The notes under the pieces were generated by a model. That model saw nothing but the letters and a program-made list of their open reading frames with translations, made no database searches and was not told the origin of the DNA. A program made the position numbers and the translations under genes. A stretch of DNA of 64,000 nucleotides, from NCBI RefSeq assembly GCF_056712565.1, contig NZ_CM160072.1; one strand, 5' to 3'. This document shows positions 27,747-47,471 of this stretch, one piece after another (the first letter of the stretch is position 1; the number at the start of each line of letters is the position of its first letter).

Positions 27747-27760
27747 TGTTCCGGCCCCTT

Positions 27761-29324: not shown

Positions 29325-29413
29325 ACTTTGCTCCTTATGAATGAATTAGCGGTATAAACGAAAAGGCCGCGTCTCCCGGAGAAGACGCGGCCTGATGGAT
29401 GAAATGAAGACGT

Positions 29414-29647
29414 TTATTGCCTGAGAATTCCCTCACTGGCGAGATACGAATTTAGCTGTTTTCCGGCATCAGGTTCAAAATTCCAGCACCGCCAGCGTAG
29501 CTGCCCTTCGGCATTGCGGATAACCAGCCGGAAATGCGTTCCCTGGTCATCTTCAATAAGCACATTGCGGTAAGCTGTTGTGATGACAACCGCCTGTTCG
29601 CGTGAGAAAGGGCCTTCGGGCAATAAAACAGGGCGACAGTCCAACAT
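29414..29647 (-). CDS. Small hypothetical protein of the CP4-like module
   Basis: 77-aa ORF in operon orientation; family not recognised. Confidence 0.35.
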
Positions 29648-29652
29648 ACCGG

Positions 29653-30330
29653 CTATTTTCCGATAAATTCAACGCTGGCGCCGGTGGCATTACCGTCAGC
29701 ACCAACCGTGACGGTCACTTTGTCGTACGCACGGTCTTCAGGATTGAATACTTCAAACTCAACCTTATTGCCTTTTACTTCGTAAGAGCCAAAATCAGCG
29801 GTTTCTGTTGTTTCCTCGTCGTATTTCCGGGCGTATGCCTGTCGGGCAGCCTGCAGTACGGAGTCTTTATTAATAGTGGTCGTCTGTTTCGGGGAAAAAA
29901 CGGCAAGTGATGTGACAAATTTCGGACAGACCTTCAGCATATCACCGCGGGTGAATTCCATTCGTACACCAAATGCCTGTAAAACGGACACATCACGCTC
30001 TGCTATGGAGTGAACGGCTTTTTTGACCATTTCCGACGCCTGTTCGGCTTCCACCTCAACAGCCCTGAATCCCGTCTGCTGATTACACATTTGTGATGTG
30101 GGGATCAGGTTACCGTTAATACTGATACGGCTGCCCAGGAGCGTCTGTACGCCATTCGGGCATCCCTGCATCAGGCCGGTAATACCAATCGTGCCATTTT
30201 TCAGCATTACCAGCGCCTGACCATCTTCCGTCATGGTCTGGCACCAGCCGTTTTTGACAGCCCAGTTACCGGCGGAGGCGGAGAAGGATGCAACAGTGAA
30301 AAGCAGGGGAAAAAGAGTTCTGGTATTCAT
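29653..30330 (-). CDS. Putative secreted protein or lipoprotein (YfjS/YafY-like position)
   Basis: ORF track 261 aa; likely start at [22 protein letters not shown], a signal-peptide-like N-terminus. Confidence 0.4.
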
Positions 30331-30480
30331 GACTGACCTCTGAAATGAACGTACGGTGTTATTGATAATGATGGAAGGTATGCAGTGACTGTTCAGGAAA
30401 TGACGTAATAGCCATATATTTAGTTTTCTGTTCAACATATTGTCTCCATACCTGTCGGGACGGCTTTGGCAGGCCGGCGA

Positions 30481-31161
30481 TCACAGGTTAAAGGTGTTGA
30501 TAAGTTTATGGATGAAAGAGAAATGTGGCAGGGCGGAGATAAAACGCTCTTCAGCGACCAGATTGTGGATGTGGCCTCTCCGTTCAAACCGTTCTGATGT
30601 CAGGCTGACTGATTTGATATCTGCCAGGGGAAAGACCTGCAGTTTTCCCTTCTGTAACGCGATCAGATACCAGCTTCCGCTGTAATAAATGAGCCGGCAG
30701 GGCTCCAGTGACGTATACCATCGCTCAGTCATCAGCGAGATGTGGATACACTGTTTTATTGCCAGGATGAGTTGCGAGAAACACTCGGGGAACGTTGCAG
30801 TGATATCCGGCGCCGGTAGCCAGATAAGGCAGGGAGAGGGCTCCTGGTTGTCGGTAAGACAGGTTATCAGTCGTCCGTTCCGGAGCGGAAGTATCCGTGC
30901 GATCCCGGTATTCTGTATAAAAGAAAGCATTTCAGGGATCGCACACGGGCTGCTCTGTCGTCTGAGGCTGTACCTGCCATTTCTGTACTCTAAATCCAGG
31001 TGAACCAGACGCTGATGAAAATCGCGCTGTAAAGTACGTTCTGTAACGCCAAATTCATCTGACAGTGTCTTTAGTGACAGAGATTCTCCGGCCATCAGTC
31101 GGCTGATAATGAGTGATAAGCGAACCGCCAGACGATCATGCCGGGAACGATCATCAGACAT
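30481..31161 (-). CDS. WYL-domain transcriptional regulator (YfjR-like)
   Basis: 226-aa ORF, N-terminal HTH (LKTLSDEFGVTERTLQRDF) and C-terminal WYL-like region. Confidence 0.65.
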   Translation of the reverse strand: MSDDRSRHDRLAVRLSLIISRLMAGESLSLKTLSDEFGVTERTLQRDFHQRLVHLDLEYRNGRYSLRRQSSPCAIPEMLSFIQNTGIARILPLRNGRLITCLTDNQEPSPCLIWLPAPDITATFPECFSQLILAIKQCIHISLMTERWYTSLEPCRLIYYSGSWYLIALQKGKLQVFPLADIKSVSLTSERFERRGHIHNLVAEERFISALPHFSFIHKLINTFNL

Positions 31162-31363
31162 AGATGTGTACTCCGTAAGAAAACATCTTTTATTTCATGA
31201 TGTTATTATGCCTCATGGTGTTGAAAGGATGTGTCGTATCTGAATAATCAGGAATAAAATGCAGCAGAAAAAATATTCCTTTAATTATCTGATTTTTAAT
31301 GATGATTTCATAAAAAGAAGAATACTCGTTAATCCAGCGACACATCCTGTCGGCGTGAGTGTG

Positions 31364-32248
31364 TCAGAACAGACGATCCCACAGTGTTTCCAGCAGGCGG
31401 ATAATGCGGTCCCGGGCTTTACGCAGAAGCTGTAACATCCAGACCGGAAAAGTGAACCGGGCAACGGCGTCGTCAAAACTTTTCCCGATGGCGTCACCAA
31501 AAGTCTGTTGTGCGTGTTTCTGGGCCTGTTCAGAGCGGTTTTCCCCCCGGATATGTGAATAAACCGCACTGGTTGCCTGCGGTGGCAGGGCGTGGATCAT
31601 CAGCGACACAAACGCCGGAAGATTCCAGCCGACAGGCGCAGCAACGGGGAGTACCGGAAATGATGACGGGAACAGGGTTGCCACCCTGGCTGTAACAGTT
31701 GCCAGTGAGAGTTCCTGGTGACGGGATGGGCATTTTTCTGTGGCATTCCATTCTTCAGCAGGAAACACGCGATCGGCATGGCTGAGAACAAACAGAAAAC
31801 GCGAGGGATCTGCACCTTCATTCAGTAAAAACTGATGCATGGCAATATCGGCAGCATACGCACGTTCATCAGCCCGCAGGATCCAGATAATCAGATCCAG
31901 TTCCGGCAGTAACTGACGGTAAATCTCCCGGTATTCCTGATCATGCTGCGGTGTCTCACCAATGCCGGGCAGATCGACCAGCGTCATTCTGCGTTCACCA
32001 ATCTGCAGGGTGAGGCGATGAGCCTGGCGGGTGCAGCCGTTCAGGGGATGCGTGGCGCAGATACGGGACTGAAAAATGGCATTACACAGACTGCTTTTGC
32101 CGGTGCCGGATTTACCCATAATGCCAATCACGGGCTCGTAATGAATAACACCGTGGAGATGTTCAAGGATTTTCTGGCGAATTTCTTCAGGAAGAAACGT
32201 CAGATATGATTTCACTTGCGCGGAGAGGGAAGAATTGCTGAATGGCAT
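31364..32248 (-). CDS. YeeP/YfjP/YkfA-family GTPase
   Basis: 294-aa ORF with P-loop GIMGKSGTGKSSLCNAIF and DLPG switch motif. Confidence 0.8.
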   Translation of the reverse strand: MPFSNSSLSAQVKSYLTFLPEEIRQKILEHLHGVIHYEPVIGIMGKSGTGKSSLCNAIFQSRICATHPLNGCTRQAHRLTLQIGERRMTLVDLPGIGETPQHDQEYREIYRQLLPELDLIIWILRADERAYAADIAMHQFLLNEGADPSRFLFVLSHADRVFPAEEWNATEKCPSRHQELSLATVTARVATLFPSSFPVLPVAAPVGWNLPAFVSLMIHALPPQATSAVYSHIRGENRSEQAQKHAQQTFGDAIGKSFDDAVARFTFPVWMLQLLRKARDRIIRLLETLWDRLF

Positions 32249-32348
32249 ACCGGTATCCTGTTGATTTCACTGAACCGGATCACACTAATCCGGTTTATCA
32301 TTCAGGTAATATGGGTGTGAAAATTTTTCCATTGACGGGAAGAAGAGT

Positions 32349-33572
32349 ATGGCTAAAAACAAAGGTATCTGTCGGAATAAAAAATGCAGTAATCCTGTTT
32401 CAGAATTTGATGAGGCAAATGCCTTAAGGTTATGCGATGATCATTATAAGCTATGGAAGCGAAATAAAGAGAATCGTCGGGTCAGGAATATTTGTCGTAT
32501 AATTAGTAGATATGACAAAAGTCTGGACTGGGAGATATTTTATAGAGTAAGAGATGCTGCAAAAAATAAAACGGGAAAGAGAATTATTGAGGACGCAAAA
32601 ATATTACACCAATGGCGTGCTTCAAAGCAAGTAAGAAAAAGTTTTCACAAGGGTGTGCTTCGGTCACGGGAATGGCTTAATACACAGGAGTTACTGAGCA
32701 GAAAACATATATCTGTTACAGGTGAACTATTTAAATTTTACATAAAAGATATTATCAGATTATATTGCTATAAGTTTCTCTACAGCAGAGAATATCTTAA
32801 TGAAAACGCATACAAAAAACGATATCAGAGAGATATTCACCCCAGAAAAGTTAATGTTCCGATACTGCAACTTGAAGTTGCATGGATAAATAATAATTGC
32901 CGCTCAAGTGATTCAAGCACTGATATTATTATCCTTCCGAGGATGATAAGAAGAATGGTTGTATTTAATTATACGAAGATAAATAAACAATTAGAGAAAG
33001 TGTTGGGGGGGATAGCACGAAAACAAACCTCAGAAAGGAATAAAGGCGGTCTCTATACCAGAATAAAAAAAGAAAGTGACTTTCTTTCTATGGATAGATT
33101 TATGGTGGAAATAGAAAATATCATAAGACCTGAAAGGTTTCCTACATCAATTTATCCAGTCTTTTCACATTCATTTATTGAACGAGAGCTTCCGCTACTG
33201 AATCTTGCCCGATCACAGTATAAAAGAGCAATAAGTAAAAGAGTGGCGAATTCAATTTTTTATACTTTGCAAAAAACTAACGTGGCATTATGGCTATATC
33301 TTGAAATGTTTGCTCTGGTGGCATTCATTAAACTGTATACAGGAAAAGGTTTTGAATTCATAAAGAACATGTGTGTATTTATCGATTATGAGAAAGGGAT
33401 AATAAAATCCACACATGAAGAACTGCTGGGTGAAATTAAACGTAACATTCAAGTGAATTTGAAGGTGAATCCTGATAATTTTCCAGAGTTAATAGATATA
33501 TACAATTCATGCTTTAGTGAAAATATATTGTCATATGATATTCAGGATGGTAATTTTAAATGGCGCTCATGA
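32349..33572 (+). CDS. Hypothetical 407-aa basic protein with an N-terminal Cys4-type (zinc-ribbon-like) motif; AT-rich foreign gene, family not recognised
   Basis: Uninterrupted 1224-nt ORF in visibly AT-rich DNA, divergent from the GTPase gene; N-terminus CRNKKCSNPVSEF...LCDDHYKLW; Lys/Arg-rich. Confidence 0.6.
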   Translation: MAKNKGICRNKKCSNPVSEFDEANALRLCDDHYKLWKRNKENRRVRNICRIISRYDKSLDWEIFYRVRDAAKNKTGKRIIEDAKILHQWRASKQVRKSFHKGVLRSREWLNTQELLSRKHISVTGELFKFYIKDIIRLYCYKFLYSREYLNENAYKKRYQRDIHPRKVNVPILQLEVAWINNNCRSSDSSTDIIILPRMIRRMVVFNYTKINKQLEKVLGGIARKQTSERNKGGLYTRIKKESDFLSMDRFMVEIENIIRPERFPTSIYPVFSHSFIERELPLLNLARSQYKRAISKRVANSIFYTLQKTNVALWLYLEMFALVAFIKLYTGKGFEFIKNMCVFIDYEKGIIKSTHEELLGEIKRNIQVNLKVNPDNFPELIDIYNSCFSENILSYDIQDGNFKWRS

Positions 33573-35024
33573 TGTGAAAATATTAATTTCACATTACATA
33601 TTAATTATCCACAAAAAACATATAATTAATTTCAATGAGTTACATATAAAAACGTTGATGATTATCCAGCTTAGTATGGTTATGCAATGTGATGCTTAAC
33701 GCTTACAGATAATAACACATTCATATGAGCTATATATCATAATATTCAATAATCATGATATGCTAATCTGATTATGGATAAAAATTACTGAATGACGCCA
33801 TATTATGATTGGCAGTGTTTCCTGTATACGATGACTTATCTCTCCCGCATCATATGGGGGTACGTTTCTTAGGAAAAGTGACGGGGTTACAGAAGCCAAT
33901 TACGATAGTTTGTTGTAGAGTTATCACGAGTTTTTGTTGTTCTGAAGACGGAATCAGAAAAATAATTCCAGAGTAAACATGTCTGTTTTTTGACCAGTAA
34001 AGATCCATGCTGGCCGTGAAAAACTGAAATCAACACTCAGTCTGCATGGATGTCTGAAGATATTGAGAATGTCGGGAATGGTACTATATACGTATTATAC
34101 AGACATATCTTCACTAAGTGTTATACACGCATTTTCATAAACAATTCTACAAGTGTTTTCATTAAGCATTGCTGTACACATTGTTTGATCTGATACACAT
34201 CCAGTTTAGTAAATCTTTACGTTAGCTAAAATCAGTTTAAAGCTGCTACAAAACAATTTTTCTTGTTTAAGTAATCAGGATGATATTCTATTTTTCTGAA
34301 GTTACGTTTAACCTTTTCTTAGTTTTTGTGTTTTTAGTCGTTAACCTGAGACAAGTGTCTTTATGTAAAAACGCAAATCCGGCTGAGATAACCTGGCGTG
34401 ATTTACTGTGTGCTTACGATGATTTTGTTAAATGGTTTTATGGATGATTTTGTAACGATGAGATTGATGAGATGATTAACTGGCCCTGGTGTTTTTTCTC
34501 AGCGCAAGACTCTTTTCAGGAAAAGCGTGATGATTGGTTCTGGTGTTTTGATTCAGATGAGGTTTACGTTATCGATGGTTAACCGTTTTTATGGAGCGTA
34601 GTTAAAAGTAACGTTTTCAGTATAAGAAAATCGATTCTGATGTTGGTGGTTTTTGTTCTTGGGGCGGGGGTGTCTGTAAACAGGTTTTAATCGCGCTGTT
34701 CGGCTCTGTGATTGAGTTGTGTGGTTAAGCTGTAGGTGTGGTGTTGCTGTTGATTTACAGCGCCAGAAAGCGTTCTGATTGCGTTTCTGACGTTTTGTTT
34801 GCGCGTTCTGTTGATCCGTTTCCCTTCAGGCTTTGTAGTTTTTAAAAAACATTTATGCCGTTGTTGTGTGTTTTACTCTGCGTGTAGGTTTATTTTTTCT
34901 TCGTGGGGGATTCATTCTGTTTTAATCAGGAGCCATTGGCGTTGCTCAATGGCGGGATGCCGTAAAGTTTTACCGCAGTGATTAATGATGTGAAGTCAAT
35001 CCAAATCAACGGAGATCTCTCATC

Positions 35025-35756
35025 ATGAATCAACCAATACACAATGCTTACTGGTTATCCCGTTTTGAAAGTATTCTCAACAGTGCCCTGGCGCAACACC
35101 GTGCCGTCTCGTTAATCCGGGTGGATTTACGTTTCCCTGAGTATATGCCTGCCACCATCATGGATACCGATTTAGATTCAGCGGTGATTTCTCGTTTTTT
35201 TGCATCCCTGAAAGCAAAAATTCAGGCTTACCAGCGACATAAACGACGTGCCAACAAGCGTGTGCGTGCAACCACTCTGCGTTATTTCTGGTGTCGGGAG
35301 TTTGGCAAGGAAAAAGGCAGGAAACATTATCACGTGATATTACTGCTCAACAAAGATACCTGGTGCTCGCCAGGGGATTTCACCGTTCCTTCTTCGCTGG
35401 CGACGCTGATCCAACTGGCATGGTGCAGTGCTCTGCATCTCGAGCCCTGGCAGGGTAATGGACTGGTTCATTTTTCCAGGCGGACGCCTTTCCGTAAACC
35501 GACATCATCTGATGCTCGCCCTTCTTCCGATGATACGCCTTTGTCGGGTGGATGTTCTGAAACCAGGAAGGCTTCAGACAAAAAGTCTGGTGGATCCGCT
35601 GTGCTCTGGGTCAAGCGTGGTGATGTGGAAGCGATGCAGAAAGCCCGGAACAGAGCCAGTTATCTCGTGAAATATGAGACGAAGCAGCATGACGGTTCCG
35701 GGCAACGTAATTATGGTTGCAGTCGTGGGGTAGGGCGTCTACTGGATGGCAGGTGA
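35025..35756 (+). CDS. YagK/YfjJ-family protein (inovirus Gp2-like, HUH-type motif HYHVILLL)
   Basis: 243-aa ORF with RVDLRFPEY and HYHVILLL motifs; assignment from recalled family signature and island context. Confidence 0.45.
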   Translation: MNQPIHNAYWLSRFESILNSALAQHRAVSLIRVDLRFPEYMPATIMDTDLDSAVISRFFASLKAKIQAYQRHKRRANKRVRATTLRYFWCREFGKEKGRKHYHVILLLNKDTWCSPGDFTVPSSLATLIQLAWCSALHLEPWQGNGLVHFSRRTPFRKPTSSDARPSSDDTPLSGGCSETRKASDKKSGGSAVLWVKRGDVEAMQKARNRASYLVKYETKQHDGSGQRNYGCSRGVGRLLDGR

Positions 35757-36102
35757 GCCCTGTAAAACGGCATCCGGTACCAGAGTGTATGTCACGGTAA
35801 GGGCGTCAGCCAACGCCCTTAGATCGTTTTCTGCTAATAGCCCTGAAGTCATGAAACGGTATTTTTATCTGCTTCCGCTCCTGGAAACACTCCGTCGGTA
35901 AAAACTTACCGGGATGATTAATGATGTGAACCGAAGTCAACGGAGATCATTCCCCCTGAACCTGCATCCAGTGTTCTTTCCCTTATCTTCCCGTTCTGCT
36001 TCGGTTCTTCACTTATTCCATCAACTCCATCCGCAAACCATAACACGTCAGCTTATTCACGGGCAGGACGCATTGTGGGCTGCGCATAACGGAGCATATC
36101 TT

Positions 36103-36678
36103 ATGAATGCTATCCCTTATTTCGACTATAGCCTGGCCCCCTTCTGGCCATCTTATCAGAACAAAGTCGTCGGCGTCCTTGAGCGTGCGCTGCGTGAGCA
36201 GTCCGGCTCACGGATACGGCGGATCCTGCTTCGTCTGCCGTGTGAATATGACAATACCTTCAACAGCAGAACGACCTGGTTTGGTATGGATTTTATCGAA
36301 ACCGTCAGTGCGCTGATGAATGCAACCCCCGGACGTGATCTCTGCTGGCTCCTGACCCGTCATCCTGAAAAACCGGAATACCACGTGGTGCTGTGCGTCA
36401 GACAGGAGTATTTCGATGGCCCTGAATTGGACCGGTTGATACTGGATGCCTGGAGTAACGTACTGGGCTTCGCGTCACCGGGTGAAGCAAAGCAGTATCA
36501 GAAGCAGATCACCCGGGATGTGGTGCTGGACAGTCGTTCACCGGACTGTGAAAACATCCTCAAAGAGTTGATATGGGCGTTCAGTGATTTCGCCCGCGAT
36601 CGTCGTGGTGTGTGCGATCCGGAAGCCCGTTGCCTCGCCGGTAATCCCGGCTATCCCGGATCTGCAGGACCGTTCTGA
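36103..36678 (+). CDS. Second YagK/YfjJ-like paralog with degenerate HUH motif (EYHVVLCV)
   Basis: ORF track starts at 35914 but the first 63 codons are the conserved upstream motif and low-complexity sequence; Met at 36103 aligns with the paralog-1 N-terminus (RILLRLPCEY vs RVDLRFPEY). Confidence 0.4.
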   Translation: MNAIPYFDYSLAPFWPSYQNKVVGVLERALREQSGSRIRRILLRLPCEYDNTFNSRTTWFGMDFIETVSALMNATPGRDLCWLLTRHPEKPEYHVVLCVRQEYFDGPELDRLILDAWSNVLGFASPGEAKQYQKQITRDVVLDSRSPDCENILKELIWAFSDFARDRRGVCDPEARCLAGNPGYPGSAGPF

Positions 36679-36806
36679 AAGCTCGGTTCAGCATCTTTCC
36701 CTGCATTCGCACAAACTTCATAAATCTCACAAAGGACATTCTGACCATGTTGACCACAACAAGCCACGACAGCGTGTTACTGCGTGCCGACGATCCCCTG
36801 ATCGAC

Positions 36807-36980
36807 ATGAACTACATCACCAGTTTCACCGGTATGACCGATAAATGGTTTTACAAGCTGATCAGTGAAGGTCATTTCCCTAAACCCATCAAACTGGGGC
36901 GCAGCAGCCGCTGGTACAAAAGTGAAGTGGAGCAGTGGATGCAGCAGCGAATTGAGGAATCACGAGGAGCAGCAGCATGA
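36807..36980 (+). CDS. alpA: AlpA-family phage transcriptional regulator (excisionase-like HTH)
   Basis: TDKWFYKLISEGHFPKPIKLGRSSRWYKSEVEQW matches the AlpA signature; ORF track start 36747, internal Met at 36807 preferred. Confidence 0.7.
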   Translation: MNYITSFTGMTDKWFYKLISEGHFPKPIKLGRSSRWYKSEVEQWMQQRIEESRGAAA

Positions 36981-37098
36981 AACGTGTTGCAATACCAGCG
37001 CCGGCATTGCGGAAATCAGCCCTGTCCCCGATGCTGGCGACACTCCCGCTCATCTTTCTGCTGACTCCTCTGGTCTGCCAACTGTTTGTCATCATTTC

Positions 37099-37266
37099 CT
37101 GACTGATTCGTCATTCCCTTCGTCCCGCCAGTCACTGGTGTTTGTATCGTACCGTCCGGTGTTGATGTGCGTTTTCCGTGTGTCTGCACCGGCTTAACAA
37201 AATTCAACAGGGTTTGAAAAGGAACATTTCGTGCAAATAACCGAAGCCTTAATTTCAGAGCCGGGA
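37099..37266. repeat. Copy 1 of a ~150-170 bp repeat (inverted relative to copy 2 at 44502-44651) with a conserved 7-1-7 palindrome
   Basis: Manual alignment to the reverse complement of 44502-44651: blocks ccggctctgaaa, gcttcggttatttgca, tccttttcaaacc, cgccagtNactggcg, gaatgacga shared; roughly 75 percent identity. Confidence 0.6.
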
Positions 37267-37279
37267 GACATCCGGCGTT

Positions 37280-37636
37280 TTGTTCAGCAGGCGCTGGAGT
37301 TCTTTAATCTGCTTCATGGCAGCAGCAAGTTCAGAGGCAGGAACGACCTGTTCTCCTGCGGCCACAGCAGTAAGACTTCCCTCCTGGTATTGCTTGCGCC
37401 AGAGAAATAACTGGCTGGCTGCCACACCGTGTTGCCGGGCAACAAGGGAGACCGTCATTCCCGGTTCAAAGCTCTGCTGAACAATAGCGATCTTTTCCTG
37501 TGTAGTACGCCGTCTGCGTTTCTCCGGTCCTAAGACATCAATCATCTGTTCTCCAATGACTGGTCTAAAAACTAGTATTAAGACTATCACTTAAATAAGT
37601 GATATTGGTTGTCTGGAGATTCTGGGGGCTAGTCTA
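37280..37636 (-). mobile_element. insC: IS2 remnant (left inverted repeat plus 5' part of insC); rest of the element missing
   Basis: Terminal ggttgtctggagattctgggggctagtcta matches the IS2 IRL; minus-strand [56 protein letters not shown]... equals IS2 InsC until homology ends near 37280. Confidence 0.75.
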
Positions 37637-38793
37637 GTTTTAAAGCGCCCCCTGCCGTATCAGAACTGGGGAATGCTACAGGGTTTGACCTGTTCCTCGA
37701 GGATCGTAGCGGAGCTAGCCATGAAAAAATGATCCAGGCCCGAAATCAGCTTCTTGCTGAAGCGGCGAAAAGTCCAGCGTTAAACATGGTTCGTCCTAAC
37801 GGCATGAACGATGAGCCTCAGTTCCAGATTCTGATTGATGACGAGAAAGTTCAGGCGTTTAAACTGAGCATGAGCGACGTCGACAACATAATGTCAGCAG
37901 CCTGGGGTTCGATGTATGTAAATGATTTTAACGATCGTGGACGGGTGAAAAAAGTCTATATTCAGGGCGAACCCGGCTCACGTATATCACCGCAGGATTT
38001 TGATAAATGGTATGTCCGTAACAGTGATGGCGACATGGTTTCCTTTGCCTCTTTTGCAACAGGCAAATGGATTTATGGCTCACCAAAACTGGAGCAATAT
38101 AATGGTATCTCTGCTGTCGAAATCCTGGGGGAACCGGCACCAGGATACAGTTCCGGGGATGCAATGAAAGCAATTGAGGATATTGCGGCAAGACTTCCCG
38201 AAGGTTTCCATATTTCCTGGACAGGTTTGTCTTTTGAGGAACGACTTTCAGGTTCTCAGGCTCCTGCACTATATGCACTTTCACTGTTGATCGTCTTTCT
38301 GTGTCTGGCTGCACTGTATGAAAGCTGGAGCATTCCTTTCTCGGTCATGCTGGTTGTTCCGCTTGGTGTCCTGGGGGCTGTCTGTGCTACTTTGTTGCGC
38401 GGCCTTGGTAACGATGTCTTTTTCCAGGTCGGTTTATTAACAACAATAGGGCTGTCTGCGAAAAATGCCATACTTATCGTGGAGTTTGCTCGTGAATTGC
38501 ATGAGAAAGAAGGACTAAGCATTAAAGAGGCTGCTGTTGAAGCGGCGAGAGTGAGGTTAAGACCGATAATTATGACTTCGCTGGCATTTGTAATGGGGGT
38601 TATCCCACTGGCTGTCTCGACTGGAGCAAGTTCCGGAAGTAAACATGCCATCGGTACTGGTGTGGTTGGAGGGATGATCACTGCTACGATACTGGCAATC
38701 TTTTATATTCCTCTCTTCTATATGTTAATTGCCGGGTTCTTCAGCCGCAGAAATAAGAAATCATCGGATAAGACTGAAGCTGAGCAATCATAA
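37637..38793 (+). pseudogene. RND multidrug efflux pump (AcrB/AcrF-like), C-terminal ~350 residues only; 5' part removed at the IS2 junction
   Basis: [28 protein letters not shown]...[25 protein letters not shown]... aligns with AcrB residues ~690-1049; no N-terminal two thirds. Confidence 0.8.
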
Positions 38794-38892
38794 GCATGAG
38801 TAAATATTCAGGTGCAGTAAACAACATACTGCGCCTGAGTAAATGGCTGTTGGGTTGGTACTAAATGCCCCAGAGATATTTCCTGAAATAAG

Positions 38893-39493
38893 ATGTCAAT
38901 GGAGATTTCAACAGTGGTGCGGCACACAAAATTTGCAGCGGAAGAAACCCGCAAACAAATCCTGGATGTGGCAGAGTTCTGCTTTTGTGAGACGGGCTTT
39001 TCGAAGACGACACTGGAGATGATTGCGGCGCGCGCAGGTTGTACTCGGGGGGCCATATACTGGTATTTCAACGAAAAAAAAGATCTTCTGCGACAAGTCA
39101 TCGAGCGGGTACCACTATCATTATTTGATGAGCTTACAGCCATCAAAAATGGGAGAGTTTTTGAACCGGTTAAAGCGATGTATCGTTGCTTATCACGTAG
39201 CCTGATTAAATTACAATATAATGTACACTTACGGAATGTAATTTATATTGTGTTTTTTTTGTGAAGAATGTCCGGATGATATAAGAATAAATTTCTTACA
39301 AAAAATGGTGGATGTCAATAATTTTGTGAAATTACTATGTTATATTTTCGAAAAAGGTAAGTTATATAGAGAAATATGTTTGGAAATTCGTAGTGAGACT
39401 CTGGCGTTCCTGCTTTTTTCTTTGTTTACGGGGGGGGGCGAAGTTGCATTCTGCAACCTGATAATAAATCCCTTTTCAGAGAGGGTTGCATAG
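38893..39493 (+). pseudogene. TetR-family regulator (AcrR/EnvR-like), apparently frameshifted
   Basis: N-terminal TetR HTH (TTLEMIAARAGCTRGAIYWYFNEKKDLL) in the 38893-39264 ORF; remainder continues in another frame (39248-39493); T8 run at 39253-39260. Confidence 0.55.
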
Positions 39494-39535
39494 TACTGGA
39501 GTTGACCCAATCAACCTTCACAGGCATCGATAAAA

Positions 39536-39881
39536 ATGAACGCTACTATAAAAAACAGCTCTGATATCAATGAGTTTGCTAAATGGATTGATGAAAATCT
39601 TGAGGTAGAACTCTCAATAAATATTGAGGCAAAAAAAGCTGGATATTCAAAATGGTATTTACAGAGATTGTTTAAACATATCATTGGTATTTCTATTGGT
39701 AGGTATATTAATAAATGCAGCAGAAGAACTACGTTCTACTACTGAATCGGTCACGACTATCACTTTTAAATATCAGTTTGATTTTCAGCAGACATTTACA
39801 AGGGCATTTACTCGCCGCTTTGGTATAGCTCCTATTGCATACCGAAAACTCGCTAAGGAAGAAGTGAGATGGAATAGTTAG
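39536..39881 (+). pseudogene. MarA/SoxS-like small AraC-family regulator, split across two frames
   Basis: INEFAKWIDENLEVELSINIEAKKAGYSKWYLQRLFKHIIG in one frame, FDFQQTFTRAFTRRFGIAPIAYRK in the next; together they resemble MarA. Confidence 0.5.
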
Positions 39882-40237
39882 TTATGTAAGCGTTATTTAC
39901 TTAAGCGTGGATATATAAGAATGATATTATCAATATGTTGCTCATGAGTTTTTAATAGCATATAGGCTTGTTAACATAGCCCAGCAATATACTTTGCAGT
40001 GGGAGCAGGTATGCATACAGAACAGTGGGCGAGGACGAGCGTCCCTTTTCGAACAAGGTAGCAAAAGAGGAAGAAGAAAGACAAATACAACTGGGCCTGA
40101 AAGGGTAGTGTTTAAGCCCCCTTTCAGGGGGCCGTGTCAAAGCCGCCCGCTATGCAGATGGTTTTTTACTTTATCTGTTAAGCAAAAAAATGCCGCGATA
40201 AAGAAATTGTTACCGCGGCAGCGTCATAGCAATTTAC

Positions 40238-40783
40238 TTATTTTTTCTTGCCGCTGGAACGAGGACCTTTCTTTGCTGCCTCCTGCGGTACATCAGATTT
40301 TGTAGGTTTAGTGTTTTCTATTGAGGGTTTAACTGGTTGATGCTGCTCCACGGACTTCAGCGTTTCATCAGTGACATCCATACAGGATGCGCTGATTGAC
40401 GTATCAAGGTTAACCACCGGGAATGTCTGTGAAGGCGCGTTTTCAGCCTGCAGTGTCGGTTGTGCAGCAGGCACTTCAGGTTGAGGTTCTGCGACGCCGG
40501 CGGTCACTTTAGAGTGAATAATCTGCTCGATATGCTGCGCGGTGCGGGCGATCACCTTATGGGCATACACCTCGCCAACCCGGCTTGCCGCGCTGATGGC
40601 TGCCGCTACCGCCGCGTTAATTGCGCCCACTTCCCCTTCCAGCTTCACGGTCACCATCCCGCCGCCTTTCGTCAATTCATAGCCTACCAGACTAACGTTA
40701 GCGGATTTCATTGCGGCATCGGCGGCTTCTACCGCCGCAGACATCCCGACGGTTTCGATTAAGCCTAAACTTTTCCCAGACAT
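40238..40783 (-). CDS. BMC-H shell protein (PduA/EutM fold) with ~90-aa Pro/Lys-rich C-terminal extension
   Basis: MSGKSLGLIETVGMSAAVEAADAAMKSANVSLVGYELTKGGGMVTVKLEGEVGAINAAV... then a low-complexity tail; start at internal Met preferred over ORF-track start. Confidence 0.8.
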   Translation of the reverse strand: MSGKSLGLIETVGMSAAVEAADAAMKSANVSLVGYELTKGGGMVTVKLEGEVGAINAAVAAAISAASRVGEVYAHKVIARTAQHIEQIIHSKVTAGVAEPQPEVPAAQPTLQAENAPSQTFPVVNLDTSISASCMDVTDETLKSVEQHQPVKPSIENTKPTKSDVPQEAAKKGPRSSGKKK

Positions 40784-40827
40784 AAATTTCTCCTGTAATA
40801 AATTCAACTGTGCTGCGCGTCGTCGGC

Positions 40828-41979
40828 TTAACGTCCAACGTCTTCGTATAATAGCGCCGCTTTGTCCGTAACTTCCCACGGAAAGCTGTCGCGACCAAAG
40901 TGACCATAGCAGGCTGTTTTACGATAGCGGGGGACCAGCAGATCAAGCGTAGTAATGATGCCGAACACGCTAAGATCGAAATGGCTGTTAACGCCTCTCA
41001 GCAACGCTTCAGATGACACTGTTTGTGTACCGAAGGTGTTAATCCTGACGGAAACAGGGCGGGGCAGGCCGATGGCCCATCCCAACTGGACTTCACAGCG
41101 TGAGGCAAGCCCAGCGGCGACGATGTTTTTCGCCACATAGCGAGCAGCGTAGGCGGCGGAACGATCGACTTTCGACGGATCTTTGCCTGAAAACGCGCCG
41201 CCGCCATGGCAAGCCGCGCCGCCATAGGTATCAACAATAATTTTACGCCCCGTTAGCCCGCAGTCACCCACCGGCCCGCCAATCACAAAACTGCCTGCAG
41301 GGTTCACCAGAAAGCGGGTTTGTGGTGTGAGCCAGTGCGAAGGCATCACAGGTTTAACAATTTCTTCGATGACCGCTTCCCGTAGCGCGTCCAGAGAAAC
41401 GTCAGGGCTGTGTTGGGTAGACACCACAACGGTATCTACTGAATGAACACGATTATCCTGATAGCGCAGGGTAACCTGGCTTTTGGCATCAGGGAGTAAA
41501 AATGGTAACCGTTGGGATTTACGCAACTGCGCCTGGCGCTCCATCAGACGATGGGCGTATACCAGCGTGGCGGGCATCAGTTCCGACGTTTCATCACAGG
41601 CGTAACCGAAGGTGATGCCCTGATCGCCCGCCCCCAGTTCTTCCATCGAGTGGCCGCGAATGCCTTCAGCAATATTGGCGGACTGTTTGCCAAGGATATT
41701 TAATACACAGCAGGTATTGCCATCAAACCCCAATCGCGAATGGTCGTAACCAATCTCTTTTATGGTGTTGCGGACAATCTTCTCAATATCCACGGCGGCA
41801 TGGGTAGATATTTCTCCGGCAACAATAGTGGCACCAGTTTTCACCAAGCATTCACAGGCAACCTTACCCCACGGGTCCTGTAGGAGTATCGCATCCAAAA
41901 TGGCATCAGAAATTTGGTCCGCCATTTTATCGGGATGCCCTTCGGCAACGGATTCGGAGGTAAACAGGTAATCGTTCAA
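40828..41979 (-). CDS. S-adenosylmethionine synthetase paralog (MetK family) within the microcompartment locus
   Basis: 383-aa ORF with MetK signatures [71 protein letters not shown]. Confidence 0.9.
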
Positions 41980-42107
41980 AGCGAGCCCACTTGTTTGGGA
42001 AGTTTATTCCTATCTTAGGATAGGAACCTGACAAGTGGGCGTAAACTATCTTGCGGGCGTGTTGGACTATTTTGCTTTCATTATCGGGCCAATGCAAAAT
42101 CACGCCA

Positions 42108-43163
42108 TCACCGTGTAATTCCCGGGGACACGACTTTTCGATAATCAGAGGGGGTCATGCCAGTATCTTTTTTGAAGATGCGGCAAAAATAGTTTGAATC
42201 CTGGTATGCCAGTTCCAGCGCAATGGTATTTACTTGTAAGTCACTGAACCGCAATAACGATTTGGCGATAGTAATTTTACGCGTGGCAATATAGTTCGAA
42301 AACCCGAACCCGGTAATTTTCTTAAAGGTACGGCTCAAATAGCAGGCACTGACAAACGATTTTGCTGCCACGTCATCGAGCGTCAAGTTTCTGAGAATAT
42401 TTTTCTCAATATGGAATTTCGCTCGTTCGATAAAATCGATATTGCCTGTATAGCCTTTTAATGCGTAATCAAACAGCTCTTCGCTAATGGTCAGCAGGCT
42501 GATCATGATGCGGAAATAGCGGCTTTCCATCATGCCATACTGGTTGATGTCTTTGATCAGCGCGGCGACTTTACGGTTAGTCGGCATTAACTTTTCCCCT
42601 TTGGCGGTCATATACTGGCTAACTATTTCCAGAAAATCGATCACGTCTTTGCGCTTATCCTCTTCTATCATATCCACCGGACAGGCACCGTTGAGCGTGT
42701 CAAAAATAAAGTTGTGCCACTGGGTGTAATCGCAATCGTCTATCATGGCGAACACTTTCTGTTTTAGGGCGCGGGATTTTTCATTTTCTCCTTCGTCGAA
42801 TGCTAGGGTTTTTTTGATGGTGTCGGTCAAGATACATTTTTTCACTGGTTTGAGCAGATAATCATCCACTTTAAGGTTGTACATGCTGCGTACTATATCA
42901 AAGTCATCATTGGCCGTGATTACGATGATTTTAGTATCGCTGTTTTTTTTCTTCAGATATTCAATCACCTGTTTACCGTTCGGCAACGGAATATTAATGT
43001 CCACTAAGATCATATCGATTTGACTCAGTTGGTCAATTAAGTGAATCGCTTTTTTACCGGTTGAGGCTTCATGGATCGCAGCGTTTTCCACACACTGGGA
43101 GATAATCTGCCGCAGGGATTCTAATTCGATGGGCTCATCTTCAACGATAACAATGGTAAACAT
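42108..43163 (-). CDS. Response regulator with CheY-like receiver and C-terminal AraC-type HTH (YesN-like)
   Basis: 351-aa ORF MFTIVIVEDEPIELESL...DMILVDINIPLPNGKQV... and C-terminal AraC HTH. Confidence 0.85.
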   Translation of the reverse strand: MFTIVIVEDEPIELESLRQIISQCVENAAIHEASTGKKAIHLIDQLSQIDMILVDINIPLPNGKQVIEYLKKKNSDTKIIVITANDDFDIVRSMYNLKVDDYLLKPVKKCILTDTIKKTLAFDEGENEKSRALKQKVFAMIDDCDYTQWHNFIFDTLNGACPVDMIEEDKRKDVIDFLEIVSQYMTAKGEKLMPTNRKVAALIKDINQYGMMESRYFRIMISLLTISEELFDYALKGYTGNIDFIERAKFHIEKNILRNLTLDDVAAKSFVSACYLSRTFKKITGFGFSNYIATRKITIAKSLLRFSDLQVNTIALELAYQDSNYFCRIFKKDTGMTPSDYRKVVSPGITR

Positions 43164-43179
43164 ATGTCCTTTTCCTGTA

Positions 43180-44442
43180 TCAGGCTTCCTGCATTGGGAA
43201 CCGAAGTTTAATGGTTGTACCCATCCTGGGTTTGTTAGGGCTCATTATTTCCAAGCCATAGCTCTCGCCAAATAACAACTTCAATCTATTTTTTATGTTG
43301 TTAATGCCAATACTGCCTTTTTGCAATTTTTGGTCGCCTGATAAAATGCGATTAATGGTATCTGGTGCGATGCCGTCGCCATTGTCAGTGACTTCAATAA
43401 TCACGTTCAGGCCATCGTCCGTGGCACGGATCAGCAGATGACTATTGCTATCCCTTGGCTCCACTACGTAGTTAAAGAAGTTTTCCACCAGCGGTTGCAG
43501 GATCAAAAACGGGCAGACTACATCCAGATATTTTTCCGGGATATCGCACAGGTAATCGAAACGGTCTCTCATACGCACTTTTTGGATCGACATATAGTTG
43601 TTGACGTAATTTATTTCATTACGCAGAGTAATCAGGCCGTGACTATTTTTACGTAACAAATAGCGCATCATGTCAGAGAAATCGTGCACCATTGTTTCGG
43701 TACGCTGCGCATCTTCAAGAAAAGCTAACCGGCCAATGGTATTTAATACGTTAAATAAAAAGTGTGGATTTATCTGATAAGAGAGCGCTTTAAATTCAGC
43801 TTCATGTAGTGAGCGTTCTATCTCTACACGTTTTCTTAACTCATTAGCCAGTGCAAGATCCTTTTTACGAAGTTCGCGTTGGATATTATTGGTGTGCGCT
43901 TGTTCGACCAGATAAGACGATACGTGTAGTAACGTCGAGGCAGTAGACTCAAAACGCTCATACGGCATGCGACGTGTATTCTGGTGCAAATTAATTAACC
44001 AAGGATTATCTTTCCAGACGTCATTATTATTCAGAATATAGGAAATGCTCTGTTCTTTCTCTTCTTCGACTTTTACCTGACCGGAAATAAAAGCACCGAG
44101 ATAATGATCGTTAATCATGATTGGGACAGCGAATTCGACAAAACCGCAGTGGCAGCGATAAACCACCGGTTTGCGAGCGTGCATCGCGGCACGGCCACCA
44201 GCGTTGTCGCTTTCATAACAGTGGTGCGCCAGTGTCGGGTTGAGACGCGAACGCATGCAGAAGTCTGAAAAACCGCTGGGCTTAGTGACCGGGATACCAT
44301 TCTCATCCACAACCACGAGCGCGATCATCATTGATTTTGAAAAGTTGTCCTGCAGGGTCTGAAGGCGTTTTACATCCAAAAACTCATTTAATTTGTATTT
44401 ATTCTTCATACTTTCAGCCTGCATTTTTAAAAACATAATCAT
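43180..44442 (-). CDS. Sensor histidine kinase with N-terminal PocR-like small-molecule-binding domain (cytoplasmic, YesM/LytS-type core)
   Basis: 420-aa ORF; Cys/His-rich N-terminal domain ([22 protein letters not shown]...[14 protein letters not shown]), H-box [18 protein letters not shown]-terminal ATPase; no TM segments noted. Confidence 0.8.
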
Positions 44443-44501
44443 ATATTTATAAATAATTTGTCGCGAAAAAATTGAAATGGATCACAGCAACAAAAACAGC
44501 T

Positions 44502-44651
44502 CCGGCTCTGAAAGTAATGCTTCGGTTATTTGCAAGGGATACTCCTTTTCAAACCTTGCTGAACCAGTGCAGATACACAGGGAAACGTATACCAGAACTG
44601 CCACAATACAAACGCCAGTTACTGGCGATACGAATGGAATGACGAGGCAGT
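44502..44651. repeat. Copy 2 of the inverted repeat (see 37099-37266); lies in the upstream region of the PocR kinase operon and abuts the group II intron 3' end
   Basis: Same alignment as copy 1; contains the perfect palindrome cgccagt-t-actggcg. Confidence 0.6.
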
Positions 44652-44713
44652 CTGTCAGAAAGCCCCACATGAACGATCACCACCTACATAGGAGGTGTTT
44701 TAAAATTGATCGA

Positions 44714-46515
44714 GTAGGAGGCGGGATCACTCCCGCCGTCCTCTCACACCACCGTACATGCGGCTCCGCATACGGCGGTTCATGTTAACACTGGAACTGC
44801 CTCTGCTGTTCCAGCAGTGATATCAGACCCTGCCTGCTGAACCACGCATTCTTTATCGCCTGATTCATATGGCTTGACTCTGAGTTCCACCATGGCCCGT
44901 GGTTGTTGTACGCTGAGATCATCGCCCTGTCCTTACTCAGTCCTGCTCTTTGCAGGTTCTTTGCCCGGGTTAGCGGTCTCTTCCACTGCCGCTACAACAA
45001 GCAACGCAGTTTCCGTTTGATCCAGCCATCCAGCTCCTCCAGCACTCCTCTGACCTCCGTCAGCCTGAAGTAGCTTATCCATCCACACAGCACTGGTGTC
45101 AGAGCATTGATTGTCGCTTTCACTGATTTGCTCCGGTTTCCCGTCGTCAGACTGTGGACTTTCTCCTTCAGCCTGTTCACGCTCGTCAGGGCTATCTTCA
45201 GCTTCGCCTGTTTGTGCCATGTCACACTGTACCCGAGGAACTTCCGATCCCACGGGCGCGCCACCGCGCTCTTCTTCTCATTCACCTTCAGTTTGTTCTC
45301 CACGAACGCCCTGATGTTCTTCAGCAGATGGTCGCCCGCTTTCCGGCTGCTTACGTAGATGTTGCAGTCGTCTGCGTAGCGGCAGAAGCTGTGTCCACGA
45401 CGCTCCAGTTCTTTATCCAGTTCATCCAGCAGGATGTTCGACAGTAACGGCGACAGTGGGCCGCCCTGCAGCATGCCCGCCTGCCGTTTCTCCCTTTGCC
45501 CGTCTTTAACCATTTCCGCTTTCAGGTAGCGGCGTATCAGTCACAGCACCCGCCTGTCCTTTATCGTTCTGGCCAGACGCGTCATCAGGAGTCTGTGATC
45601 CACCCGGTCGAAGAACTTCTCCAGATCCATATCCACCACCCACCGTTTGCCACCCCGTATGTAACGCTGTGCCTGTTGCACCGCCTGCTGGATAAGCCTG
45701 TCCACCACCGTCGGGATGCCTGAGGTTCTCACGCCGCCATCCGGCTTCGGGATATCCATCCGGCGTATTGTCCGCGGCTGGTAGTTTCCGTCAATCAATG
45801 CCTGCCTGACGCTGCGCCAGTTCTTCTTCAGCCACGGTTTCAACTCCGCCACGCTGAGGTTATCCACCCCCGCCGTGCCTTTGTTTTCCACCACGCGCTG
45901 ATAAGCCAGCATCAGGTTTTCTCTCGTTATCACCGCTTCCATCGTCAGCGGCACTTCCGCTTTCGTTTGCCCACCCGCCGCCGTGCTGATTTCAGCGCCA
46001 TCATGCAGCCCTGACGGATACTGTCCGTCTCCTCTGCCGCTGGTCGCAGTGGCCTGCGCTTGTGCTTCATTAATCATCATCGGGTTCGGATGTCCTAATC
46101 ACAGTTAATCATGTTCGGCCCTTCATGCTGCCGGTTTTGCAGCACTACTACGGCGTCGGCTGACTTCTGCCGCCCCATCCCGGCGCCTCACGGCGCCGGT
46201 AGCACACTGGCAGGGCGACAGATCTCCCGGGGTAATTCACGCGACTTTCCTGCTTATGCCTGTCGGCTTTACGTCACAGCGTTCCGTGTGAGTATCGGGC
46301 TTTGGTGATTAGTGCCACCTTACCCTGCTGCGCCGCCTTAACCGCTTCCTGTTCGTCAGGCCAGCATTTTGCATCCAGCTTCCTTCAGATTTCACCTCGC
46401 GATGAACACCCTTGCCTTCCGCTAACACTTCCCCTCACCGGGTGTGTGGAGGACTTTCACCTCTTAGTCGTTCTTCTGCCACCACAGTTGAAGAACAGCG
46501 CCAGTCACGGCGCAC
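44714..46515 (-). mobile_element. Group II intron (bacterial class C-like: inserted just downstream of an intrinsic terminator)
   Basis: Minus-strand 5' end GTGCG at 46511-46515, six nt after the terminator U-tract; domain V-like hairpin (GAACCGCCGTATGCGGAGCCGCATGTACGG) and domain VI-like hairpin near 44715-44780; RT ORF inside; 3' boundary approximate. Confidence 0.7.
44992..45942 (-). pseudogene. Intron-encoded reverse transcriptase/maturase interrupted by in-frame stop codons
   Basis: RT motifs (GVDNLSV, QGGPLSPLLSNILLDELD, FCRYADDCNIYV) and X-domain (CGWISYFRL); in-frame TGA at 45541-45543 and TAG at 44992-44994 after which the frame still reads RQWKRPLTRAKNLQ. Confidence 0.7.
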
Positions 46516-46525
46516 ATAACAAAAA

Positions 46526-46548
46526 GCCAGCAGGCAGACACTGCTGGC
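46526..46548 (-). terminator. Rho-independent terminator of the upstream membrane-protein gene; insertion target of the intron
   Basis: gccagcag-gcagaca-ctgctggc hairpin flanked by A5 and T5. Confidence 0.55.
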
Positions 46549-46565
46549 TTTTTGTTATGGCGGGA

Positions 46566-47471
46566 TTAAAACAGGGGAACCAAGGTAAATAATCCAATGG
46601 TCGCCAACAGATTAATCATCGTGGTCATAATGGTGATGACCATCGCCGGCGGGTCAATATGTGTATCGCCGTGGATCAGGAAGATACGCGACATCAGTTC
46701 ACCCAATATCGCGCAAATTATGCCAACGATAGCAGCCCAAATCAGGCTACCTGATGGCACCGCTACCAACGCGGCAGGCAGCGAAATATGATGTGACACC
46801 GGTACCTGAGTATTGAAATGCAGGAAAATCAGTGAGAACGCGGAAATACCAAACGCCAGCAGCGCGCCGTTGCCGCCAAACTTCAGGCCTAAAAAGCCTG
46901 CCATCAAGCCAATACCCAAGCCCAGCACGGAAAGCTGCGGAATGCGGCTATGGTAAGGTATCCAGCACTTATCCTGCGGCGGATAGCAGTGACGAATTCC
47001 CTGCTCCGGTTTTCCAAACAGGCCAGTTTTACCGAAAACCAGACGCGAGACCACGCCAGAAATCACCACGGTTAGTGCCACGGTATCGGTCCAAGCATTG
47101 CCGGACGGGAAGGCCGGAATCTGGTTCAACCCCCAGGCGATGATGTAACCAACCGCCCCAAAAACCCCGCCTACCAGCAGCACATCGTAAGCCGCCAGAC
47201 CGCTCAACCCGGCAGTGATATCACGCCCGGAACCCAGCTTGCCTTTCTTCGCTGCATACGCCGTCGCCGCAACCCCAGCGGCAAAGCCGCCGGTGTGCGG
47301 GCCAAACAGTCCAAACGGAAAAGTAATAAAGTCCGATGATGCTCCGGTAATAATTTGCACTACCGTCATGGCGATAACCAGAAGCCCAACGAATTCAAAC
47401 GCCGCCAGCGCGCCAACAGCCGCACCAAATATGCCGCCGCCGAAGGCAACTACAATATCTAAGCTATTCAT
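46566..47471 (-). CDS. Polytopic membrane protein, probable transporter (family not recognised; no NPA motifs, so not a GlpF/PduF-type channel)
   Basis: 301-aa Gly/Ala-rich hydrophobic ORF directly downstream of the activase gene. Confidence 0.55.
   Translation of the reverse strand: MNSLDIVVAFGGGIFGAAVGALAAFEFVGLLVIAMTVVQIITGASSDFITFPFGLFGPHTGGFAAGVAATAYAAKKGKLGSGRDITAGLSGLAAYDVLLVGGVFGAVGYIIAWGLNQIPAFPSGNAWTDTVALTVVISGVVSRLVFGKTGLFGKPEQGIRHCYPPQDKCWIPYHSRIPQLSVLGLGIGLMAGFLGLKFGGNGALLAFGISAFSLIFLHFNTQVPVSHHISLPAALVAVPSGSLIWAAIVGIICAILGELMSRIFLIHGDTHIDPPAMVITIMTTMINLLATIGLFTLVPLF

Follow-up and report, generated by a model that had tools for sequence, protein, structure and literature searches.

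Why should a bacterial microcompartment locus carry one of its shell genes away from all the others, and why should the product of that gene, a BMC-H shell protein, prolong its shell domain with a long C-terminal tail? Both questions are raised by an open reading frame at positions 40238 to 40783 of a 64,000-nt stretch of contig NZ_CM160072.1 (RefSeq assembly GCF_056712565.1; the whole stretch is hereafter called the window). A preliminary description of this DNA had seen in it a BMC-H protein with a long C-terminal extension, encoded apart from the other shell genes and last in line after a two-component regulator and a metK paralogue, and both points were borne out: a Pfam domain is followed by about 87 further residues, and the gene occupies just that place. 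The gene and the signals that frame it are the following:

40238..40783, minus strand: grpS coding sequence, 181 aa plus TAA stop (open reading frame and translation)
40790..40794, minus strand: ribosome binding site AGGAG, 6 nt 5' of the grpS ATG (read from the sequence)
40181..40220, minus strand: grpS intrinsic terminator, an 11-bp stem with six GC pairs and a run of seven T (terminator scan and sequence)

The open reading frame (546 nt) begins with an ATG at 40781-40783 and ends with the TAA at 40238-40240, and the alignment places the start of all homologues at this same ATG, in the context M(S/A/P)(G/K)QSLGLIE. The GC-rich terminator hairpin (40220-40191) starts 17 nt past the stop codon. 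The gene is 100% identical to RefSeq grpS (WP_000015571.1), whose product name is 'propanediol utilization system shell hexameric protein GrpS', and over a 4.4-kb stretch around it the DNA agrees at 100% identity with the annotated genes grpP-grpQ-grpR-grpS of many E. coli strains, among them ATCC 11775, S88 and APEC O1. GrpS of E. coli CFT073 and its relatives likewise has the same sequence and the same neighbours (grpP, grpQ, grpR, grpA-O), with no difference. Full-length grpS is present in 537 of the 5426 complete E. coli genomes, at 99% identity or more in 534 of them, and tailed GrpS orthologues occur in Atlantibacter, Pantoea, Leclercia, Serratia, Rahnella, Klebsiella, Raoultella, Symbiopectobacterium, Brenneria, Gibbsiella and other genera. 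Some variants in ENA are shorter (162-176 aa) through in-frame deletions; each is a singleton from a metagenome assembly, and they were not counted as natural alleles. From sequence identity, the gene can be named grpS with near certainty: it is number five among the shell genes of the grp locus of E. coli, which is of the GRM3 type and encodes a glycyl-radical propanediol microcompartment. A review that cites Lundin 2020 counts five shell proteins in the grp cluster (PMC13210347). As the gene is already named and annotated, in a genetically characterised locus, this part of the finding is mostly confirmation; a search of the full-text literature returned no relevant match for GrpS in a microcompartment context, nor for the locus tag c4548.

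How is the gene placed within its locus? On the minus strand, the order of the genes is grpA to grpO, a group II intron, grpP, grpQ, grpR and grpS. The products of grpA-grpO comprise a glycyl-radical diol dehydratase and its activase, an aldehyde dehydrogenase, a phosphotransacylase, a propionate kinase and an alcohol dehydrogenase, together with a peptidase, a flavoprotein, an EutJ-like chaperone, a DUF336 protein, a permease and four shell proteins, the shell genes being grpE, grpH, grpI and grpK. The GRM3 class was defined by a glycyl-radical enzyme, activase, aldehyde dehydrogenase, phosphotransacylase, acetate/propionate kinase, peptidase, flavoprotein, EutJ-like protein, DUF336 protein, SAM synthetase and a two-component pair (Axen et al., PMC4207490), and the RefSeq annotation of grpA-grpS fits this definition in its gene content, SAM synthetase and two-component pair included. 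The elements upstream of grpS are:

40828..41979, minus strand: grpR, dedicated methionine adenosyltransferase, a metK paralogue (NCBIfam TIGR01034 metK, 588 bits; RefSeq)
41980..42107, minus strand: grpQ-grpR spacer of 128 nt, promoter/operator-like, conserved across five taxa
42108..44442, minus strand: grpQ (response regulator with AraC-type output) and grpP (histidine kinase with a PocR domain) (annotation, NCBIfam, Pfam domains of orthologues)
44708..46513, minus strand: group II intron between grpO and grpP (Rfam RF02001, RF01998 and RF00029; extent from other copies)

The grpR gene lies directly upstream of grpS, at a distance of 44 nt, and encodes a protein of 383 aa that matches metK over its full length and has no obvious targeting extension. 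The reverse-transcriptase/maturase reading frame of the intron is in two pieces (45541-46080 and 44992-45513). The preliminary description had named this intron as what separates grpS from the other shell genes; the separation is present in the window, but it is specific to a lineage, as the intron is missing from the five other lineages compared. In these (Atlantibacter, Raoultella, Rahnella, Brenneria and E. coli PK5074), the regulatory module is convergent to grpA-O, while in the window grpPQRS stands behind grpA-O on the same strand. The convergent module marks grpPQRS as a separate transcription unit, and the layout of the window as derived. The Rahnella locus is without metK, and its grpS gene follows directly after grpQ, with the full tail kept.

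Being a separate unit, is grpS also expressed on separate occasions? The grpQ-grpR spacer holds the sequence GCAAAATAGTCC at 42064-42075, and two copies of AAGATAG, at 42010 and 42046. A degenerate pattern, GCAARATARTCC, has three exact matches in the 64-kb window, all on the gene strand and upstream of grpR, grpH and grpA, respectively; with one mismatch allowed, it has six matches in the window, against 1.3 expected from shuffled sequences. A relaxed pattern, RCAARAWARTCC, is found upstream of grpR in four other loci and directly upstream of grpS in Rahnella, and also upstream of grpH in three of those five other loci. This 12-nt motif is hypothesized to be a candidate operator shared by the grpA, grpH and grpR promoters. 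It could not be matched convincingly to the footprint that GrpQ leaves on fimS (PMC11724981), and for that reason its role as a GrpQ operator is put forward as hypothetical. A simple scan for the sigma-70 consensus gave no more matches than shuffled sequences did and none in the grpQ-grpR spacer, so that the promoter is read from conservation only. By qRT-PCR, expression of grpR has been found to need GrpP/GrpQ, with 1,2-propanediol under anaerobic conditions (PMC11724981).

From these elements we largely infer that grpS is transcribed with grpR from their own promoter, whose 12-nt motif would be common with the grpH and grpA promoters; grpR-grpS thus probably has an inducible promoter of its own, within the regulon of the structural operons. 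The preliminary description had suggested that separate regulation points to conditional incorporation of the protein into the shell. The separate unit stands, whereas conditional incorporation is weakened by the shared motif and by the dependence of grpR on GrpP/GrpQ. A dosage of GrpS different from that of the products of the structural operons remains plausible. GrpS would then probably be produced with the compartment when GrpP/GrpQ sense 1,2-propanediol anaerobically, and likely at a lower dosage than GrpH.

What kind of shell tile is the protein? Its N-terminal half contains the two elements on which an answer depends:

40502..40783, minus strand: BMC-H domain, residues 1-94 (Pfam, PDB matches, AF2, conservation, dN/dS 0.06)
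40655..40678, minus strand: pore loop E36-L-T-K-G-G-G-M43 (alignments to GrpH and PduK)

GrpS has a single Pfam PF00936 domain (residues 5-80, model positions 1-74 of 75, E 1.2e-22), residues 4-91 are collinear with PduA, CcmK, CsoS1, EutM and other BMC-H chains of the PDB, and the order of the domain is the canonical one of a non-permuted BMC-H. An AF2 monomer gave pLDDT values of 79-89 over residues 11-80; a pseudo-hexamer made of five copies of residues 1-112 and one full-length chain, with an alignment of 10 rows, reached a pLDDT of 27.7, too low for an interpretation. The KAAN and (P/A)RPH edge motifs are the mark of tiling hexamers (PMC8217296), and GrpS has K26 and N29 (in KSAN) and R80 (in ARTA) at the corresponding hexamer edge, with K26, A28 and R80 invariant among 33 aligned homologues, while the His of the RPH motif is not kept. 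With K26, N29 and R80 retained, GrpS should be able to tile into shell facets.

The closest of the three shell proteins compared by domain identity is GrpH of the same locus (49%, against 36% each for PduK and EutK), which shares the fold and edge residues of GrpS, but has no tail, a KIGSG pore loop, and PRPH as its edge motif in place of ARTA. Compared with the EKIGSGL of GrpH and PduA, the pore loop of GrpS, ELTKGGGM, has one additional residue (a one-residue gap in the alignment with GrpH), and it equals in length the EKTNGSGW of PduK, to which it aligns without gaps; YELTKGGG is found in most of the 120 relatives listed. The GrpU-type Fe-S pore motif, G-x-C-P-Q-(N/H) as defined in PMC6325248, is absent from GrpS, which has TKGGGM in its pore loop; the neighbouring GrpK carries this motif as GSCPQH.

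The tail can be divided into four segments, two of which vary and two of which are conserved:

40430..40501, minus strand: linker 1, residues 95-118, rich in Pro, Ala, Glu and Gln, variable in length (indels, low conservation)
40370..40429, minus strand: conserved tail motif, residues 119-138, QTFPVVNLDTSISASCMDVT (alignment of homologues)
40289..40369, minus strand: linker 2, residues 139-165, acidic/polar, variable and missing in some genera (alignment)
40241..40288, minus strand: polybasic C-terminal tip, residues 166-181, PQEAAKKGPRSSGKKK, net charge +5, consensus KKxxRPxGKK(K/R)

The preliminary description had taken the tail for a low-complexity sequence rich in Pro, Gln, Lys and Ser that ends in a Lys cluster. 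The composition of residues 95-181 (about 87 residues; P 13%, A 10%, S 10%, K 10%, V 9%, E 8%, Q 8%, T 8%) and the C-terminal end KKGPRSSGKKK roughly agree with the second half of this statement, but the Shannon entropy of the tail over 20 residues (2.9-3.6 bits) does not fall below that of the Ala-rich domain (2.6-3.4 bits), and a plain low-complexity tail is at odds with the two short conserved motifs under purifying selection that were found in it. The consensus of the tail motif in the GrpS family is (I/F)PVVN(L/V/I)(D/E)-x5-8-SC(M/L)D; I121 and C134 are each conserved in at least 90% of 33 homologues (the allele of the window has F121), a PVV-type motif is present in 89 of 109 full-length relatives, and a tail Cys in 101 of the 109. 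The polybasic tip is still more widespread: 106 of the 109 relatives have at least four K/R within the last 15 residues, and the tip has a net charge of +4 to +7 in 32 of the 33 homologues, just as the Pro-rich acidic stalk has a net charge of -4 to -14 in 32 of 33. In the alignment of 33 sequences, the tip stays in frame across tail lengths of 61-106 aa and many indels, which shows that the tail is both translated and selected.

Selection was estimated as dN/dS (Nei-Gojobori) against the divergent E. coli PK5074 allele, with small counts throughout: the BMC domain has the lowest value (0.06), next to 0.3-0.4 for motif and tip and 0.7-1.0 for the linkers, with about 1.0 for linker 1, 0.31 and 0.09 for the tail motif, 0.71 for linker 2 and 0.36 for the tip. 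The regions rank in the same order against Atlantibacter. The structure prediction of the tail that the preliminary description had proposed was carried out with AF2 and an alignment of homologues: residues 96-181, linker 1 among them, have pLDDT values below 50 and no secondary structure, and the tail is accordingly predicted to be intrinsically disordered. No helix was predicted anywhere in the tail that could stand for an encapsulation peptide (a short amphipathic alpha-helix), the conserved motif being rich in Pro and beta-branched residues, unlike such peptides, and inspection of the basic tip by eye revealed no canonical AT-hook or recognised DNA-binding motif. A tail-only profile run against 1.84 billion cluster representatives found six matches, all of them members or fragments of the GrpS family and none outside it, so that the tail is confined to that family.

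To which of the known tailed shell proteins is GrpS then to be likened? CmcE, EutK and PduK form a recognised group of tailed BMC-H proteins, which may join shells as mixed hexamers with canonical ones, and in reported assays CmcE and PduK were seen to co-assemble with canonical BMC-H proteins (PMC12058022). The PduK/EutK class had been named in the preliminary description as the one with which the protein should be aligned, and it was the right comparison. The alignment upheld a shared extended class, but the GrpS tail proved to be no homologue of either tail. PduK resembles GrpS in its plan (a BMC-H domain extended by a disordered linker rich in Pro and Glu, by an element with Cys, and by a basic end), in the length of its pore loop and in the segment AHKVIAR; the domains are 36% identical, and the tails do not align. 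The Pro/Glu-rich linker of the Salmonella PduK tail leads to a four-Cys motif, CNLCLDPKCPRQKGEPRTLC, compared with a single Cys in GrpS, and the Cys-rich tail of PduK is thought to hold an Fe-S cluster (PMC6325248). The order pduJ-pduK-pduL in a B12-dependent pdu operon also differs from the position of grpS after grpR in a GRM3 locus. Membership in the PduK family was rejected on account of one Cys (C134) against the four of Salmonella PduK, and of the wrong type of locus.

EutK is likewise a BMC-H protein with a positively charged C-terminal extension, and its gene adjoins eutR, which encodes an AraC-family regulator, at the end of its locus, as grpS is found beside a gene for an AraC-family regulator. 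The extension of EutK is a folded domain of the nucleic-acid-binding, helix-turn-helix type (PMC12058022), in contrast to the GrpS tail, which has no predicted structure, and the identity is 36%. No second Pfam domain or helix-turn-helix was found in the GrpS tail, by Pfam or in the AF2 model, which has no helices in residues 96-181. Membership in the EutK family was also rejected, with an NCBIfam EutK score of 60.4 bits against a cut-off of 218 and a match limited to GrpS residues 5-110. Judged by sequence, GrpS thus falls outside both the PduK and the EutK families. CmcE, of the GRM2 choline microcompartment, is a BMC-H protein with a C-terminal extension of 40-70 residues, and it too belongs to a glycyl-radical compartment; the likeness is one of description only, and its tail is not detectably related to that of GrpS, given that the tail-only profile has no matches outside the GrpS family.

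What these relatives are reported to do concerns the position of whole compartments in the cell. Deletion of eutK leaves Eut compartments polar and static, EutK is needed for their normal partitioning, and the extension of PduK has been tied to the subcellular distribution of compartments; the same authors link the effect of eutK to the disordered extension of PduK and to the positive tail of EutK, which would possibly bind nucleotides in a ParB-like manner (PMC12487888). Because no similarity to the PduK or EutK tail is detectable in that of GrpS, the analogy is one of function, not of sequence.

The C-termini of BMC-H proteins lie on the concave face of the hexamer, which faces outward in solved shells, and the GrpS tail should therefore project into the cytosol, with an orientation that is probably outward, as for the tails of PduK and EutK. 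On this analogy, the reading that we favour, with a probability of roughly 35-40%, gives GrpS the part of a minor shell tile, with an outward tail that would space and position Grp compartments, the tip binding a polyanion and the motif a partner. GrpS would enter the shell as homo-hexamers or mixed with GrpH, and its tail would serve in the cytosol both to space and to tether: compartments would be held at a distance from each other by the acidic stalk and attached, through the basic tip and the PVVN/SC motif, to a polyanion or a partner, for which nucleoid DNA is the leading candidate. The distribution and inheritance of compartments might thereby be controlled, which is the role reported for EutK and PduK. 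Of the shell genes, reportedly only grpE, grpH and grpI were needed for growth on 1,2-propanediol in the work of Lundin et al. 2020, which would make the role of GrpS non-essential in those conditions and fits an accessory function.

Other explanations place the function of GrpS elsewhere or deny it altogether. A tail acquired through a lost stop codon or a frameshift, functionless in an artefactual or decaying gene, might be suspected from the gene remnants that fill the region downstream of grpS and from the fast evolution of the tail as a whole (dN/dS 0.62), but this explanation is refuted: the same 546-nt reading frame recurs in 534 complete genomes, orthologues with the same C-terminal motif exist in at least 10 genera, the frame is kept through many indels, a terminator lies directly 3' of the stop codon, and motif and tip are under purifying selection. 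The missed stop or frameshift by which the preliminary description had allowed that the tail could be explained away is thus ruled out by the 537 complete E. coli genomes with a full-length gene, which exclude a sequencing artefact. Another explanation, which we consider rather unlikely although it comes nearest to the favoured one, makes GrpS a specialised pore tile, whose Gly-lined LTKGGG loop and flanking Lys would let through a metabolite excluded by GrpH (such as phosphate/propionyl-phosphate, or one related to methionine/SAM), the tail being a solubility or anti-aggregation bristle with no specific partner. The additional and highly conserved residue length of the loop relative to GrpH speaks for it, as do the almost neutral evolution of the linkers and the disorder of the whole tail in AF2, and a role in adjusting permeability has been suggested for shell paralogues encoded outside the main operon (PMC8217296). 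If the tail were a pure bristle, however, there would be no need for purifying selection on two of its segments, conserved as they are across genera that differ in tail length; and a role of the pore does not exclude one of the tail.

The tail could also be put to use either as a luminal scaffold or as a redox element. In the former case, which appears improbable, an inward tail would recruit cargo (the diol dehydratase GrpM, the activase GrpN or the SAM synthetase GrpR) through PVVN/SC or the tip, and would resemble the disordered linker proteins of carboxysomes. Short motifs conserved within a disordered tail typically serve for docking, and grpS adjoins grpR in most loci, GrpR itself being devoid of an obvious targeting extension; but Rahnella keeps a complete GrpS tail in a locus without metK, which weakens a tether specific to GrpR, and the C-termini of BMC-H proteins are on the external concave face of solved shells, while the motif (Pro/beta-branched and not predicted to be helical) is unlike known encapsulation peptides. 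A degenerate PduK-like redox tail, finally, in which Cys134, present six times in a hexamer, would be the ligand of a metal or Fe-S centre or form disulfides, and thus link the shell to electron transfer for the glycyl-radical activase, seems to us very improbable. The strong conservation of this Cys, the Fe-S cluster ascribed to the PduK tail (PMC6325248), and the pore-loop length and AHKVIAR segment common to both proteins are what recommend it. Against this, there is one Cys per chain instead of four and no CxxC spacing, several members of the family without the Cys (Pantoea P0012 and P0035; also P0082 and P0090) nevertheless retain both the PVV motif and the basic tip, and with GrpK a GrpU-type Fe-S hexamer is already encoded in the locus.

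Returning to the positioning of compartments by an outward tail, this reading may be carried one step further, though we find the step somewhat doubtful: the GrpS tail might be a third solution to microcompartment positioning, unrelated in sequence to the helix-turn-helix domain of EutK and the Cys-rich domain of PduK. The outward acidic stalk and polybasic tip would then hold Grp compartments on the nucleoid or another polyanion, and the (I)PVVNxE...SCMD motif would bind a putative partner.

The grp compartment is carried by about 10% of E. coli, largely extraintestinal pathogenic lineages, which can ferment 1,2-propanediol without B12, and its GrpP/GrpQ regulator also affects fimbrial expression. 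Little is understood of the spacing and inheritance of metabolosomes, in which tailed BMC-H proteins are at present suspected to have a part. To this, the present analysis adds a map of the GrpS tail (stalk, motif and tip) that can be used for mutagenesis, along with evidence of selection on the tail; it sets GrpS outside the PduK and EutK families, and describes a candidate promoter motif common to grpA, grpH and grpR, and a lineage-specific inversion of the regulatory module with an intron at the junction. Should the third-solution reading hold true, tailed BMC-H proteins at large would be a class of adaptors for the partitioning of organelles, and two short linear motifs would have been newly defined.

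The module made up of the two-component genes grpP and grpQ, the metK paralogue grpR and the tailed shell-protein gene grpS runs in the same direction as the main genes grpA-O in the common E. coli lineage only (43180-46566 in the window), whereas in the five other lineages compared, namely Atlantibacter (L002), Raoultella (L003), Rahnella (L004), Brenneria (L005) and the divergent E. coli PK5074 (L008), grpPQRS is convergent with grpA-O and lacks the adjoining intron. It follows that an inversion has turned the module round in the window lineage, and the intron sits exactly at the junction:

44708-46513, minus strand: group II intron, with Rfam matches to D1-D4 and to domain V/VI
45541-46080 and 44992-45513: the two ORFs into which its reverse-transcriptase/maturase frame is broken

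Related copies elsewhere, on E. coli chromosomes and plasmids, carry an intact ltrA, and the copy in the window is probably immobile.

A CP4-type island remnant is present in the interval from cadC to the grp locus, and the grp locus thus belongs to a mobile-element-rich region adjoining cadCBA. Immediately 3' of grpS lies a series of gene remnants, which suggests that the margin of a genomic island is decaying here. Past the grpS terminator, at 40095-40140, comes a long imperfect inverted repeat, GGCCTGAAAGGG...CCCTTTCAGGGGGCC, which has no Rfam match.

about 22600-37000: CP4-type remnant, with a cbtA/yeeU toxin-antitoxin pair, an antirestriction gene, DUF932/DUF905 genes, a GTPase and an inovirus Gp2-like gene
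37255-39881: a transposase fragment, the C-terminal part of an RND efflux permease, a short TetR-family ORF and two AraC-family fragments

Within the shell itself, codon 121 of grpS (40421-40423) encodes Phe in the main E. coli allele, and this residue is Ile in at least 90% of 33 aligned homologues, divergent E. coli alleles among them. GrpK (51821-52120, minus strand) is the predicted Fe-S hexamer of the Grp shell, because its pore motif, G-S-C-P-Q-H, is of the GrpU type.

The grp genes also share a 12-nt motif, GCAARATARTCC, whose three exact occurrences in the 64 kb each lie 5' of a grp gene (grpR, grpH and grpA):

42064-42075, 54944-54955 and 60689-60700, minus strand: exact copies
55028-55039 and 60719-60730, plus strand: partial inverted copies

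It is kept at the equivalent site upstream of grpR (of grpS in Rahnella) in all five comparison loci, and upstream of grpH in Atlantibacter, Rahnella and the divergent E. coli. GCAARATARTCC is a candidate operator of the grp regulon, at which GrpQ may possibly act as the regulator; no published description of it was found in the literature accessible to search.

In the Rahnella locus (9692-10001 of L004), the metK paralogue is absent, and grpQ is followed by a 308-nt spacer that retains the 12-nt motif, and then by grpS. The locus can therefore do without the dedicated SAM synthetase, and grpS is independent of it.
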